This document shows, piece by piece, positions 37,016 through 41,482 of a stretch of DNA of 64,000 nt. Origin of the DNA: an uncultured Acidimicrobiales bacterium (GTDB lineage: Bacteria; Actinomycetota; Acidimicrobiia; Acidimicrobiales; VFJN01); contig CAVZUI010000013.1 of NCBI GenBank assembly GCA_963778415.1, forward strand, positions 67,976 to 131,975, given 5' to 3'. The translations under genes were made by a program, and so were the position numbers. The notes below the pieces were generated by a model. It searched no databases. It worked only from the letters and a program-made list of their open reading frames with translations, and was not told the DNA's origin. The first letter of the stretch is position 1. Each line of letters starts with the position of its first letter.

Positions 37016-38096
37016 CTACAGGTCCTCGGCGCGCAGGGCCGAGAAGCCCGGCTTGATCTGGCCCTCGATGATGCGCAGGCGCTGGTCGAACGGCCAGAAC
37101 GCCGACTTCATCGCGTTGATCGTCAGCCACTCGATCTCGTCCCAGCCGAAGCCGAACGCCTCGACGAGGTTGTGGAACTCGTGGGTCATGTCGATGTCGG
37201 ACATCAGCCGGTTGTCGGTGTTGACCGTGACCCGGTAGCGGAGCCGGGTCAGCAACCCGATCGGGTGCTCGGTCGATCGACGCCGCCGCCCCGGTGTGCA
37301 CGTTGGACGTCGGGCACATCTCGAGCGCCACCCGGCGGTCGCGGACGAAGGCGGCCAGCCGTCCGAGCTGCGCCCGGCCCTCGTCGTCGAACGTGATGTC
37401 GTCGACGATGCGCACGCCGTGGCCCAGCCGCTCGGCGCCGCACAGCTGCAGGGCCTCCCAGATCGACGGCAGGCCGAACGCCTCGCCGGCGTGGATCGTG
37501 ATGTGGCTGTTGGCCTTGGCGATCTCCTGGAACGCGGCCAGGTGTCGGGTCGGCGGGTTGCCGGCCTCGCTGCCGGCGATGTCGAACCCGACGACGCCCG
37601 AGTCGCGGTGGCGCAGCGCCAGCTCGGCGATCTCGTTCGAGTTGGCGGCGTGGCGCATCGCCGTCGCCAGCGTCCCGATCGTGATGGGACGGCCGGCGCT
37701 GCCCAGGCGGAACCCCTCGAGCACCGCCTCGACGACCTCGTCGAGGGTCAGCCCGCCGTCGATGTGCAGCTCGGGGGCGAAGCGCACCTCGGCGTAGACG
37801 ACGCCGTCGTCGGCCAGGTCCTCGGCGCACTCGGCGGCGACCCGCACGAGGGCGTCCTTGGTCTGCATGACGCCGACGGTGTGCTCGAACGTCTCGAGGT
37901 AGAGGTCGAGGTCGTGGCGGTAGGCGCCCTGCGTGAACCACGCGGGCCAGCTCGTCGACGTCGGTGGTGGGGAGGCGTGTGCCCGGCGTCGCGTGCCAGC
38001 TCGACGACCGTGGACGGGCGGAGGCCGCCGTCGAGGTGGTCGTGCAGCAGCACCTTCGGGAGCCCGCCGGATCTGGTCGAGGGTGGGTGCAGCCAT
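37016..38096 (-). CDS. add: Adenosine deaminase; about three apparent frameshifts (~38060, ~37960, ~37265)
   Basis: [13 protein letters not shown], then [19 protein letters not shown] (ORF 37748-38053). The core is in the ORF 35580-38195 frame ([25 protein letters not shown]...[13 protein letters not shown]...[12 protein letters not shown]...[18 protein letters not shown]...RLGHGVRI...[13 protein letters not shown]). The tail is ORF 37016-37255 ([21 protein letters not shown]). Confidence 0.92.
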
Positions 38097-38170
38097 GCCC
38101 CAGGCTACCGGGGGCGGGCGGGCGATGTTCCGCCAGCCCGGTCGGGGCATACAGCGTATGGTGGCCGGCG

Positions 38171-39787
38171 ATGGGGGAGCAGGGGACACGCGCACGCCCG
38201 CGCCGTCGGGCGTGGGGAGAACGATTGGCTGCAGCAGCGCTGGCCGTGGCCGTCGGGGCCGGGGCCGCGACGGGCGGCCCGGCGGCGTCGCCCGCGGGCG
38301 CGCAGGCCCCCGGCCCCGTGGCCGGGTGGTCGACCACCGAGGGCACCGACGGCCGGGTGTACATCGCCGACGAGCAGGGTCGAGCCCTGCAGTTCCACGG
38401 GTTCAACGTGAAGACGGGCGACCCCGCCACCGACGCCAGCGACCAGCTCCTGGCCGACGCCGCCGCCCGGGGCATGGACCACATGCGCCTCGTCGTGTTC
38501 TGGGACCACCTCGAGCCCGCCCAGGGCGAGTTCGACGAGGCGTACCTCGACGAGATCGTGGCGGCCATGGACCGTGCCGAGCGCCACGGCATCCTCGTGA
38601 TCCTGGACATGCACCAGGACGTCTTCGGAGAGGCCTTCGGATCGCGGGGCGTCCCGGCCTGGGCCACCCGCACCGACGGCCTGCCCTACGTCCCGCAGGA
38701 CGTCTGGTTCCTCAACTACCTGCAGCCCGCGGTGCAGGCCGCGTTCGAGCACCTCTACGAGGACCCCGACCTGCGGCAGGCGCAGATCGATGCGTGGCTG
38801 CACGTCGTCGAGCGGGTGCAGGACCACCCCGCGCTGTTCGGGTACGACCTCATGAACGAGCCGTTCGGCAAGATCCGACCGGGCGAGGACCTGTTCACCG
38901 CGGCCGAGCGGGTGGAGCGCGAGCAGCTCACCGCCATGTTCCAGCGCCTCACCGACGCCATCTCTGCCGTCGACCCGGACCACTGGGTCTTCTTCGAGCC
39001 GCCGAACCTGGCGTCGCTCGGCATCCCGACGTCGCTCGGCGAGGTGCGCGGACCGAAGGTGGCGCTGTACCCGCACATGTACGACCCCAACATCGAGTCG
39101 GCGACCTACACGCCTGGCGGGGTGGTGGAGTACGACCCCGAGTTCTTCGCCACGTGGGCCGAGGCGACCGTGGTCTACACCGAGGAGCACCCGATCCCCC
39201 TGCTGGTCGGCGAGTGGGGCATCGCCCAGCCCGACCGGCCCGGCATGGACGCGTTCGTGCGCGACTCGCTCGCCACGCTCGAGCAGGTCGGCTCGGGGTG
39301 GTCGGTGTTCAACTGGTGCCGCGGGAGCGGCTACTGCCCGCTCGACGCGTCCGGCGCCGACCGCCCGGCCATCGGCCAGATCTTCCAGCCCTACGCCCGG
39401 GCCATCGCCGGCGCCCCCACGGCCTCGCGGTGGGACCCGCAGGCGCGGACGCTGCGGGTCACGTTCACCGACAACGCGGCCACGGGGCCGACCGAGATCT
39501 ACGTGCACGGGCCGTCGTACCCCGACGGCTGGGTCGTCGAGGTCGGCGACGCGACCGGGACGTGGTCGCAGTCGTTCGACGCGGCCACGAGCGTCCTGTC
39601 GGTCACCACCCCCGACACGGGCGGGGCGCACACGATCTGCGTGCGGCCCGCAGGTTCGGCGGCGGGCTGCGCAGGCTCTCCCGCGTCGCCGGCCGACCCA
39701 GCGGGCCCGGGCGCACCGGGCACCGGCCCCGTGCCGGTGGCCACGCCCGCGGTCCCGGTCCCGGGCGGCCCGACCTACACCGGCTGA
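38171..39787 (+). CDS. Secreted glycoside hydrolase family 5 protein (cellulase / endoglycoceramidase-like)
   Basis: This is the frame of ORF 37964-39787 from ATG 38171. The signal peptide is Arg-rich ([26 protein letters not shown]). GH5 hallmarks follow: [42 protein letters not shown] (acid/base NEP), LLVGEWG (nucleophile Glu). The tail is Pro-rich. No frame disruption. Confidence 0.88.
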
Positions 39788-39790
39788 CCC

Positions 39791-40111
39791 GAGGCGATGG
39801 GTTCCGTCGGGCCGGGGTTGAGGCGGTGGTTCCGGATGTGGAACCGATTGCCTCGGGCGCCGGTGGGCGGAACCTGTTGCCTCACGTCACCCCGAGGCGA
39901 TGGGTTCCGTCGGGCCGGGGATGAGGCGGTGGTTCCGGATGTGGAACCGATTGCCTCAGCCTCGGGTGGGCGGAACCATTGCCTCGGGCGGGCGTGAGGC
40001 AATGGGTTCCGGTTCGGCGAGGCGATGGGTTCCGTTGGGGCGAGGTTGAGGTGGTGGTTCCGGATGTGGAACCGATTGCCTCAGGCTCGGGCGGGCGGAA
40101 CCTATTGCCTC
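39791..40111. repeat. Three tandem ~100-125 bp nested-palindrome units built from 13 copies of a 14-15 bp motif (GGAACCnnTTGCCTC and its complement)
   Basis: Unit starts are 39791, 39894 and 40019. The central hairpins GAGGCGGTGGTTCC ggatgt GGAACCGATTGCCTC lie at 39820-39854, 39923-39957 and 40048-40082. Outer arms lie at 39791-39805/39869-39883, 39894-39908/39972-39985 and 40019-40033/40097-40111, with an extra arm at 39996-40010. The array sits between convergent stops (39787 and 40192). Confidence 0.9.
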
Positions 40112-40191
40112 GGAACTCCGGATCGGGCGCACGGGCGAGTCCAACGGGCACCGACGGGCTCGGGCGCCCGGCGAGGCCGGGCCAGGCCCGG

Positions 40192-41482
40192 TCAGGTGAT
40201 GCGCTCGTGGATCAGGGGGCGCGGGGCGGGGGGCTCGGGGCCGACCTCGATCGCCGTCTCGAGCGCGGCCAGCGCGCCCGGCAGGCGGGCCTCGTCGTCG
40301 GCGTGCAGCAGCAGCACGGGTTCGCCCGCCTCGACCGGGTCGCCGGGCTTGCGCAGGCAGATCGCCCCGGCCGACGGCGACACGGGGTCCTCCTTGCGGG
40401 ACCGGCCGGCGCCGAGGCGCCACACCGCCACGCCGACGGCGCGGGCGTCGAGGCGGCGCAGGTAGCCCCCGGCCGGGGCCCGCACCTCGTGGTGGACCGT
40501 GGCCGCCGGCAGGTCGGCGTCGGGATCGCCGCCCTGGGCCCGGATCATGGCGTCCCACACGGCGAGCGCCCGCCCGTCGGCCAGCGCGGCGCGGGGACCG
40601 CCGTCGTCGCCGGGAACGATCCCGGCGAGCGCCAGCATCTCGGCGGCCAGCGCCACCGTGACCTCGACGAGGTCGGCCGGCCCGCCGCCCCGGAGCACCT
40701 CGACGAGCCTCGAGCACCTCGAGGCCGTTGCCGCACGCCCGGCCCAGCGGGGCCTCCATGTCGGTGATGAGCGCCACCGTCCGCACGCCGTGCGGCCTGC
40801 CCGAGGCCCGACCATGGTCTCGGCCAGGCGGCGGGCCGTGTCGATCTCGGGCAGGAACGCCCCGGACCCCACCTTCACGTCGAGCACCAGCGCCTCGGTG
40901 CCCTCGGCGATCTTCTTCGACATGATCGAGCTGGCGATCAGCGGCACGGCCTCGACCGTGGCCGTCACGTCGCGGAGGGCGTAGAGCTTCCGGTCGGCCG
41001 GGCACAGCGTCTCGCTGGCCGCGCAGATCACGGCGCCGACGTCGCGCAGCTGCGCCACGACGCGGTCGGTGGGCAGCGTGGCCTGCCAGCCCGGGATGGC
41101 CTCGAGCTTGTCGAGCGTGCCGCCGGTGTGGCCGAGCCCGCGGCCCGAGAGCTGGGGGACCGCCGCCCCGCACGCCGCCACCAGCGGCGCCAGCGGCAGC
41201 GACACCTTGTCGCCCACGCCGCCGGTCGAGTGCTTGTCGACCGTCGGGCGGCCGACCCCCGACAGGTCGAGGCGCTCGCCGCTGTCGATCATCGCCTGCG
41301 GTCCAGGTGGCCAGCTCGCCGGGAGCCATGTCTCGCAACAGGATCGCCATGCACAGCGCCGCGGCCTGCTCGTCGGCGATCGTGCCGGCGGTGTAGCCCT
41401 CGATGAAGAAGCGCACCTGCTCGTCGCTGAGCGTGCCGCCGTCGCGCTTGGTGCGGATCACGTCGAGGATGTCGGTCGCCAC
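40192..41482 (-). CDS. deoA: Thymidine phosphorylase; about three apparent frameshifts
   Basis: N-terminus in the ORF 39956-41482 frame (ILDVIRTKRDGGTLSDEQVRFFIEGYTAGTIADEQAAALCMAILLRDM). The core is in ORF 40192-41292 (VDKHSTGGVGDKVSLPLAPLVAACG...SGRGLGHTGGTLDKLEAIPG...IASSIMSKKIAEG...VLDVKVGSGAF), with a short internal excursion to another frame (GVRTVALITDMEAPLGRACGNGLEV). Confidence 0.92.

Follow-up and report, generated by a model that had tools for sequence, protein, structure and literature searches.

We analysed a 64,000-nt stretch of DNA from an uncultured Acidimicrobiales bacterium (the window), in which an array of short repeats fills most of the spacer between two convergent genes. 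On one side lies a glycoside hydrolase family 5 (GH5, cellulase-family) gene, whose longest open reading frame (ORF) spans 37964..39787 on the + strand (Pfam Cellulase, 2.4e-24; Glyco_hydro_5_C, 3.1e-11). Homologues are 518-550 aa long, which makes a start codon further downstream probable. On the other side, a deoA-like pyrimidine-nucleoside phosphorylase gene spans 40192..41482 on the - strand, with its stop codon at 40192-40194. Between the two stop codons, a single 14-15-nt box occurs 13 times, on either strand. The copies form three 94-nt nested-palindrome units and one orphan, and the unit is a dispersed repeat of Acidimicrobiales genomes, linked to a gene for an AbiEi-like protein with a predicted nuclease domain.

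Unit 1 (39790..39883, + strand) begins just downstream of the GH5 stop codon (TGA, 39785-39787, 2 nt before the unit). Its outer-left (39791-39805) and inner-left (39820-39833, 14 nt) boxes are in the forward orientation, GAGGC..GGTTCC; after the loop GGATGT (39834-39839), its inner-right (39840-39854) and outer-right (39869-39883) boxes are in the reverse one, GGAACC..GCCTC. Unit 2 (39893..39986, + strand) has its forward boxes at 39894-39908 and 39923-39936 (14 nt) and its reverse boxes at 39943-39957 and 39972-39985 (14 nt). For unit 3 (40018..40111, + strand), the positions are 40019-40033 and 40048-40061 (14 nt), then 40068-40082 and 40097-40111. The orphan forward box, GAGGCAATGGGTTCC (39996..40010, + strand), is a partial module and precedes the first box of unit 3 by 23 nt. 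The units start 103 and 125 nt apart and are 87-90% identical, with a single base different between units 1 and 2 over the first 65 nt. Tandem Repeats Finder (TRF) reported the 103-nt period, as well as a 23-nt period at the orphan box.

The pattern GGAACCNNTTGCCTC, with up to two mismatches, matched nine times in the window and every time in the spacer, against 0.98 matches expected from shuffles; none of 100 shuffles reached nine. The four 14-nt boxes escape this ungapped search because of a 1-nt deletion. GC content falls from 0.75-0.85 in the flanks to 0.66-0.72 within the array, and the + strand of the array has strong G>C and T>A skews.

An earlier note on this DNA had described the 13 boxes, the three tandem units with their spacing and near-identity, the lower GC content, and a long imperfect hairpin per unit on either strand. 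We recovered all 13 boxes at the same coordinates and the units as described, and folding confirmed the hairpins. On the + strand, units 1, 2 and 3 fold at -71.3, -78.9 and -70.2 kcal/mol (z -8.3, -9.5 and -9.5), a range of -70 to -79 kcal/mol, and on the - strand at -45 to -57 kcal/mol. The + strand is better by ~22 kcal/mol because of G.U pairs. The note's statement that the whole spacer is built from the box holds for 39788-40114, the array proper, but not for the last ~77 nt (40115..40191), which are GC-rich, not built from boxes and not alignable to the spacers of relatives.

Dispersal and local triplication of the unit

We scanned one genome per species with the inner-hairpin pattern GGTTCCN{4,8}GGAACYNATTGCCTC, which gave at least 104 matching rows. 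The unit, whose dispersal the earlier note had suggested searching for, was found at more than 100 loci (numbered with an L here) in at least 18 metagenome-assembled genomes (MAGs) of Acidimicrobiales. Barring four, the matches listed come from Acidimicrobiales, Microthrixaceae or Acidimicrobiia. L007, L037, L052 and L101 were discarded as chance matches, in which the four-box architecture is missing. There are at least 22 hit stretches in MFD05454.bin.1.266, at least 12-13 in two other genomes, and at least 11 in MFD04850.bin.1.220, the window's closest relative among the matches listed. An nhmmer profile of the family recognised ~104 full units over the 872 kb of sequence fetched, and in the 64-kb window only the three described above, which score 73.3, 72.7 and 80.6 bits.

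The full unit is 94-100 nt long and consists of an outer box, a 14-nt linker, an inner box and a centre of ~6 nt, followed by the reverse complement of the inner box, a second 14-nt linker and the reverse complement of the outer box. The consensus box is GAGGCAATGGGTTCC, and the consensus of the unit is cCGAGGCaATgGGTTCC-G-(8 variable nt)-GAGnnn-GAGGcnATgGGTTCC-GnATnC-GGAACCcATTGCCTC-nnnCTC-(8 variable nt)-C-GGAACCcATTGCCTC-Gg. Across 99 aligned copies, the boxes and their 29-nt spacing are conserved and the linkers are variable.

Most loci hold a single unit. Arrays or extra boxes were observed at L015, L064, L079 and L085 (two tandem units), and extra single boxes stand beside full units at L014, L015, L064, L079, L104 and L127. 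The 29-nt module, a box with its 14-nt linker, can amplify alone, and the orphan box at 39996-40010 is the same phenomenon. At L104 (1687-1817) five reverse boxes follow one another with a 29-nt period, and at L127 (3519-3591) there are three.

The units lie mainly near gene 3' ends. With neighbouring genes called by a crude GC-frame method, 71 gene 3' ends have a unit no more than 150 nt away, the median distance being 31 nt, and some units overlap the stop codon region. Both neighbours could be called for 66 intergenic copies, 34 of which lie between convergent genes, 28 between co-directional genes and 4 between divergent genes. Truncated units without one outer box abut coding sequence at L045 (5547-5611), L054 (3706-3770) and L107 (3554-3618). 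At L107, a HAD-like ORF starts (MRLDAVVFDFDG) where the outer-right box is expected.

Copies have spread replicatively within genomes, and they form lineage-specific subfamilies. The 14-nt inner-left box (GAGGC-GTGG type) is present in 34/34 copies of the two closest MAGs and in 3/3 units of the window, and in no other genome. Elsewhere the dominant forms are GAGGTCAT in SMAG_U9475 and the fully symmetric GAGGCAAT in CAYUXB and JBKJIL. Some copies of the same genome are 0.85-0.94 identical, linkers included, and stand in unrelated flanks, with the similarity spanning from CGAGG to CCTCG. For example, the unit of L004 and the one upstream of the nuclease gene of L046 are 0.94 identical, and L065/L077/L098/L099 and L015/L020/L085/L104 are further near-identical sets.

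The searches for signs of a conventional transposon were negative. No target-site duplication (TSD) of 3 bp or more was found, direct repeats of 3-6 bp being at control level; there is a weak excess at 2 bp (28 vs 18.6 expected). No transposase family recurs among the ORFs within 2.5 kb of ~100 copies, and no Y1 transposase was seen there. Similarly, no parent insertion sequence (IS) with the same termini was detected in the 872 kb around the copies, and the element had no DNA match in plasmid and phage collections. The largest cluster of neighbouring ORFs was rejected as an artefact, in which short-chain dehydrogenases are joined by single linkage; just two of its members are the AbiEi-DUF559 protein described below.

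The history of the array can be followed in relatives. GH5 homologues of up to 94% identity were found in Acidimicrobiales MAGs. The relative with a 94% identical GH5 gene (L001) has a single unit, likewise placed behind the stop codon at the same position. At 93% GH5 identity (L003), a cupredoxin-like gene stands in place of the unit, and at 86% (L002) there is a 16-bp spacer and no unit. The comparison of copy number between relatives, also suggested in the earlier note, thus gives 3, 1, 0 and 0 units for the window, L001, L002 and L003, which makes the GH5-deoA site polymorphic for both presence and copy number. The small cupredoxin-like gene of L003 (11636-11872) lies in this spacer, which marks the spacer as a hotspot for change.

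Over variable columns, the units of the window are 0.79-0.85 identical to each other (0.85 between units 1 and 2) and 0.76-0.79 identical to the single unit of L001; for the family as a whole, identity averages 0.46 and its 99th percentile is 0.71. Each window unit has its nearest relatives within the array, with the L001 unit second, so the array goes back to a single ancestral insertion that was triplicated locally, not to three insertions. The insertion point and a TSD cannot be read at this site, because the spacers of L002 and L003 are unalignable with the filled sites. A second candidate pair of filled and empty sites, L053 against the window at ~55.4 kb, has synteny ending exactly at the element, and no insertion point or TSD could be read there either.

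The deoA-like gene also differs between the window and L001. Its Pfam domains are split over two frames because of four 1-nt insertions with respect to the intact L001 orthologue, near 41299, 40809, 40790 and 40706. These are either indel errors of a long-read assembly or the mark of a pseudogene. Fragmented gene calls are numerous in L002 and L003 as well.

The AbiEi-DUF559 partner gene

Few loci have two separate units; at two of these (L046 and L094), the units bracket a homologous ORF of 315 aa (60% identity between them) with AbiEi_4 and DUF559 domains in Pfam. Eleven further loci with homologues, four on metagenome contigs and seven in assemblies, were retrieved with the protein alone. 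A four-box nested palindrome lies 40-100 bp upstream of the gene in 11/11 of them, and in 9/11 there is a unit just downstream too. Of the other two, L108 is cut by the contig end on the downstream side, and L113 has no downstream unit. The partner gene of L113 (3001-3924) is frameshifted or degenerate through the middle. This locus may hold a decaying system, since its gene is frameshifted and it is the only one without a downstream element.

The box varies from locus to locus together with the protein. The form GAGGCAATGGGTTCC or GAGGTCATGGGTTCC is found at L046, L094, L110, L113 and L119, and GAGGCAATAGGTCCC at L108, L117, L120 and L123. Single loci have GAGTGAATGGGTTCC (L118), GAGGAACCTGGGCTCA (L109), GAGGCAATAGGTGCGG (L125) and GAGGCGATTCGACCG (L127). 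The variants GGTTCC, GGTCCC, GAGTGAAT.., GAGGAACCTGGGCTCA, ..GGTGCGG and ..TCGACCG each track the protein, and the architecture and the 29-nt period are constant across them. The association is limited to a clade of at least 50% protein identity, since no such element accompanies three more distant homologues, those of L111, L112 and L114 (29-36% identity). Upstream of the gene, L111 and L112 carry a different inverted repeat, TTTCGTCACA...TGTGACGAAA.

The chromosomal neighbourhood recurs. In the seven gene-annotated loci (L117, L118, L120, L123, L124, L125 and L127), an acyl-CoA dehydrogenase gene on the opposite strand lies directly downstream, and where the locus extends far enough a thiamine pyrophosphokinase (TPK) gene comes next, directly or after one acetyltransferase gene. 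At L046 and L108, the upstream ORF shares a C-terminal motif with the acyl-CoA dehydrogenase found upstream in L118. L119 has a different gene context, and the sequence downstream of the gene in L094 differs too. MFD05454 has a single copy of the partner gene among its at least 22 hit stretches. The protein has no homologue in the plasmid collection. Its family has more than 240 members at E<=1e-20, with lengths tightly around 315 aa. Dozens of them are on contigs of 1.1-1.4 kb that hold the gene and stubs, which suggests that short-read assemblies break at the flanking repeats.

In addition, the motif TGTCACA is conserved 25-40 nt upstream of the gene start, between the element and the start codon, at L046 (~1470-1476), L094, L108, L109, L110, L113, L117, L118, L120, L123, L125 and L127. 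At this place L111 and L112 have their inverted repeat instead. The motif may be a promoter or an autoregulatory operator of the AbiEi-DUF559 gene.

NCBIfam gave no informative model for the partner protein, and PADLOC AbiEi models match it at 1e-27. Its AlphaFold2 (AF2) model has a mean predicted local distance difference test (pLDDT) score of 87.9. Residues ~1-200 of the model match AbiEi (6y8q) and Rv2827c (1zel). The C-terminal domain matches I-Bth0305I (TM 0.77-0.79, target-normalised), Vsr and the DUF559 protein NGO0050 (3hrl). The protein is thus predicted to join an AbiEi-like winged helix-turn-helix (wHTH) half to a DUF559/Vsr-like PD-(D/E)xK nuclease domain. Across 52 sequences, D240, D245, E251, D253, H258 and several Arg never vary, which is consistent with an active nuclease of the Vsr type, an activity that we infer from these residues.

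A residue of the N-terminal half also varies with the box. In the predicted helix 33-41, one residue (~33-34) is Ala in all five GGTTCC loci with an intact gene (that of the sixth, L113, is frameshifted) and Ser in 4/4 GGTCCC loci, and it differs again in loci with divergent 3' half-boxes. If this helix is taken as the recognition helix of the predicted wHTH, a residue of it would track the 3' half of the box, which is suggestive only. The loci are phylogenetically non-independent, and the Ala/Ser correlation is therefore weak evidence. Six residues downstream of this position, an Arg-to-Asp change is seen in the two most divergent box types.

Interpretation and rival explanations

REPINs are doublets of repetitive extragenic palindromic (REP) sequences that form hairpins and occur with REP-associated tyrosine transposases (RAYTs) (bioRxiv 10.1101/2021.07.10.451892; PMC5581495). 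We read 39788-40114 as a local triplication, with an orphan box, of a dispersed Acidimicrobiales four-box element that forms a REPIN-RAYT-like pair with a different enzyme, and we give this reading a probability of roughly 0.6. The boxes would be recognition sites of a cognate protein whose gene usually lies in the same chromosomal neighbourhood. Its AbiEi-like half would bind the four boxes, much as the AbiEi homologue Rv2827c of M. tuberculosis occupies four 23-bp repeats between positions -1 and -131 relative to its start codon (PMC7319586), a close precedent for four boxes in one array. Nicking or cutting by the protein at or near the element would then, in trans, maintain the non-autonomous units or copy them into further intergenic sites. 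Local arrays would arise where the 29-nt and ~100-nt repeats slip or exchange unequally. The one in the window would be tolerated between the convergent GH5 and deoA genes, where it might, as a by-product, form a hairpin barrier to read-through transcripts; a role as terminator or RNA stabiliser would be secondary.

A more specific proposal is that the predicted AbiEi wHTH-Vsr/DUF559 nuclease and the four-box unit make up a bipartite, vertically inherited replicator of Acidimicrobiales, analogous to REPIN-RAYT, with the nuclease recognising the unit, co-evolving with it and, in trans, maintaining or duplicating it. We advance it tentatively, at slightly under even odds.

Several points weigh against the paired-element reading. 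Many copies are kept at orthologous sites between species of ~88% flank identity, which points to slow turnover and a possible function for the host. There is no copy of the partner gene within the 64-kb window. The true operator of the AbiEi type could be TGTCACA, in which case something else would read the boxes. Insertion at new sites takes more than a nuclease, and no strand-transfer activity was recognised; a RAYT or another transposase may be present elsewhere in these genomes. Unit counts are lower bounds, and a 1:1 relation between gene and repeat population is only a possibility. Finally, DNA binding, cleavage, mobilisation and any effect on transcription are all steps that we infer.

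The first rival keeps the protein and drops the mobility: the units would be operator or architectural sites, dispersed binding arrays of the AbiEi-like protein that are useful to the host (as regulator, insulator or nucleoid organiser) and not mobilised, with a nuclease domain that is incidental or otherwise used. Proteins of the AbiEi type occupy two to four repeats in front of the genes that encode them (PMC7319586), and the element lies 40-100 bp upstream of the partner gene at every locus. The retention of copies at orthologous sites and of boxes between linkers that drift uncompensated would also be expected of such sites. What makes this rival unlikely is the distribution of the copies, which stand behind genes and between convergent ones rather than at promoters (34 convergent vs 4 divergent), vary in presence and number at one site between close relatives, and recur near-identical, linkers included, at unrelated sites in one genome. 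Derived characters common to every copy in a lineage and the invariant core residues of the nuclease domain argue against it as well.

A second rival places the function in RNA, with the + (GH5 sense) strand functional and the hairpins acting as factor-independent terminators, as 3' untranslated region (UTR) stabilisers against exonucleases, or as a structured small RNA (sRNA). The earlier note had listed a structured RNA among its options. The very stable folds, the better + strand, the GC skew, and the position of the array directly 3' of a stop codon, as of the family at gene 3' ends, all speak for it. Several results count against it. A full-length hairpin drawn on the 99 copies has 79.2% of its cells paired, vs 78.7% with partner and column shuffles, so covariation is barely above the control. 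The 8-nt linkers are ~50% unpaired, and the box variants GAGGCAAT and GAGGTCAT are uncompensated in the opposite arm. The RNA folds better from the '+' strand in 39 copies and from the '-' strand in 36, with 29 neutral. In the window's subfamily, which has an orientation mark, 8 copies are sense and 10 antisense to the adjacent gene. The + strand advantage is not a family trait, since in the window it is shared by three mutual copies. Rfam gave no match at gathering thresholds in the whole window, and at E<=10 only noise, miRNA models at 14-22 bits against thresholds of 65-100. Likewise, no terminator-like site was detected in 39500-40400, and no U-tract or T-run follows any unit. The central 6-mer is often palindromic (GGATCC, GCATGC, ACATGT), which is not required of a loop and fits dyad-symmetric duplex DNA or templated palindrome formation instead. 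An RNA-level function is thus improbable.

Together, conserved boxes and spacing, linkers that drift uncompensated, and random orientation argue for protein-recognition boxes rather than RNA. Among the suggestions of the earlier note, a protein-binding array therefore fits best, given the AbiEi-like partner protein, and an extragenic repeat of the REP or bacterial interspersed mosaic element (BIME) type was right in kind, since the unit recurs at more than 100 loci and genomes carry tens of copies.

We consider it far less probable that the unit is a classical miniature inverted-repeat transposable element (MITE), a deletion derivative of a DDE-type IS that moved via its terminal inverted repeats and inserted three times independently in this spacer. 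The unit is short, non-coding and dispersed, with inverted termini and presence/absence polymorphism, as a MITE would be. On the other hand, the palindrome takes in the entire unit, internal box repeats included, and not its ends alone, and the weak 2-bp signal is all that was seen of a TSD. No recurring transposase lies within 2.5 kb of the ~100 copies. The idea of a tiny MITE inserted in tandem also fails at this site, where the three units derive from one another.

A locally duplicated terminator private to this spacer, the fallback of the earlier note, which had itself held a single terminator insufficient, has a convergent-gene spacer with hairpins in its favour, and is practically excluded by the more than 100 copies in at least 18 MAGs and the missing U-tract.

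Relation to known systems and significance

Published criteria for REPIN-RAYT systems include lineage-specific repeat populations and a bracketed, co-varying partner gene in a recurring neighbourhood (bioRxiv 10.1101/2021.07.10.451892). The Acidimicrobiales element has the same general form: an extragenic, palindromic, non-coding unit of ~100 bp with many copies per genome and no TSD. Its partner gene is flanked by units of its own population in a recurring neighbourhood, and was absent from the plasmid and phage collections searched; the repeat sequence co-varies with the partner lineage, and the populations are lineage-specific. The differences are equally clear. The partner is predicted to be an AbiEi-like wHTH protein with a DUF559/Vsr-like nuclease domain, whereas RAYTs are HUH/Y1 (IS200-like) transposases. 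The unit has four non-palindromic 15-nt boxes, two direct and two inverted, with a 29-nt period, whereas a REPIN has two inverted REPs, each with a palindrome of ~14 bp. The stems lack compensatory evolution, the host belongs to Actinomycetota (Acidimicrobiales), and tens of copies were seen, as a lower bound, in place of hundreds. We do not file the element as a REPIN, because its unit is not a pair of REPs and its partner is not a RAYT.

Other known systems resemble it in part. REP/BIME sequences of the E. coli type are also extragenic and palindromic, lie at gene 3' ends, are sometimes arrayed and are candidate protein-binding sites, but they have no sequence relation to the element and a different box architecture. 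The AbiEi operators of S. agalactiae abiE and M. tuberculosis Rv2827c (PMC7319586) share the AbiEi fold, predicted here for the N-terminal half, and in our loci, too, four boxes lie within ~170 bp upstream of the protein's own gene. Here, in contrast, there is no adjoining AbiEii nucleotidyltransferase toxin, the C-terminus is a predicted nuclease, the array is also found downstream and as tens of solo copies, and two boxes are direct and two inverted. The modelled C-terminal domain superposes on the catalytic domain of the Vsr-like (EDxHD) homing endonuclease I-Bth0305I (PMC3239194), on Vsr and on NGO0050; the gene here, unlike that of I-Bth0305I, is outside any intron or intein, and complete palindromic units bracket it where a homing gene would interrupt its target. 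MITEs, Correia elements and mycobacterial interspersed repetitive units (MIRUs) are likewise small, non-coding, dispersed or tandem intergenic repeats. The present element differs from them in having no TSD or parent IS found and, from MIRUs, in being palindromic and mostly non-tandem.

Four further candidates were rejected. A MIRU-type variable-number tandem repeat (VNTR), as the earlier note had considered, would consist of non-palindromic 40-100-bp direct tandem repeats in operons; the units here are palindromic, lie between convergent genes and are mostly single elsewhere. In an attC site the boxes would be inverted (R''-L''...L'-R'), whereas the two boxes of each half are direct repeats here, and the neighbourhood in the window has no cassettes or integrase. 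A CRISPR-like reading was dismissed on architecture. Finally, an AbiE type IV toxin-antitoxin system would account for the AbiEi-like fold and hidden Markov model (HMM) matches, but the neighbours are acyl-CoA dehydrogenases, TPK, NusB and GNAT, with no DUF1814 (AbiEii) gene. In the open literature on DUF559, AbiEi, MTES_1575 or Acidimicrobiia together with repeats, of which our coverage is incomplete, we found no description of such an element.

For Acidimicrobiales genomes the repeats have a practical side: short-read assemblies probably break at them, and they could serve as VNTR markers, with 0, 1 or 3 units at this site in close relatives. If the link between gene and unit is functional, the protein of 315 aa and the 15-bp box, which comes in natural specificity variants, would be clean reagents for studying how repeats are recognised and copied. 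What is known of REP- and REPIN-type repeats comes almost wholly from their RAYT (HUH tyrosine transposase) partners, mostly in Proteobacteria. The same genomic logic appears here in Actinomycetota with an unrelated enzyme. If our reading is true, it would give this AbiEi_4-DUF559 clade of Actinomycetota its first functional assignment, and the lifestyle of a domesticated nuclease with a population of palindromic repeats would have had an independent, convergent origin, having evolved more than once.

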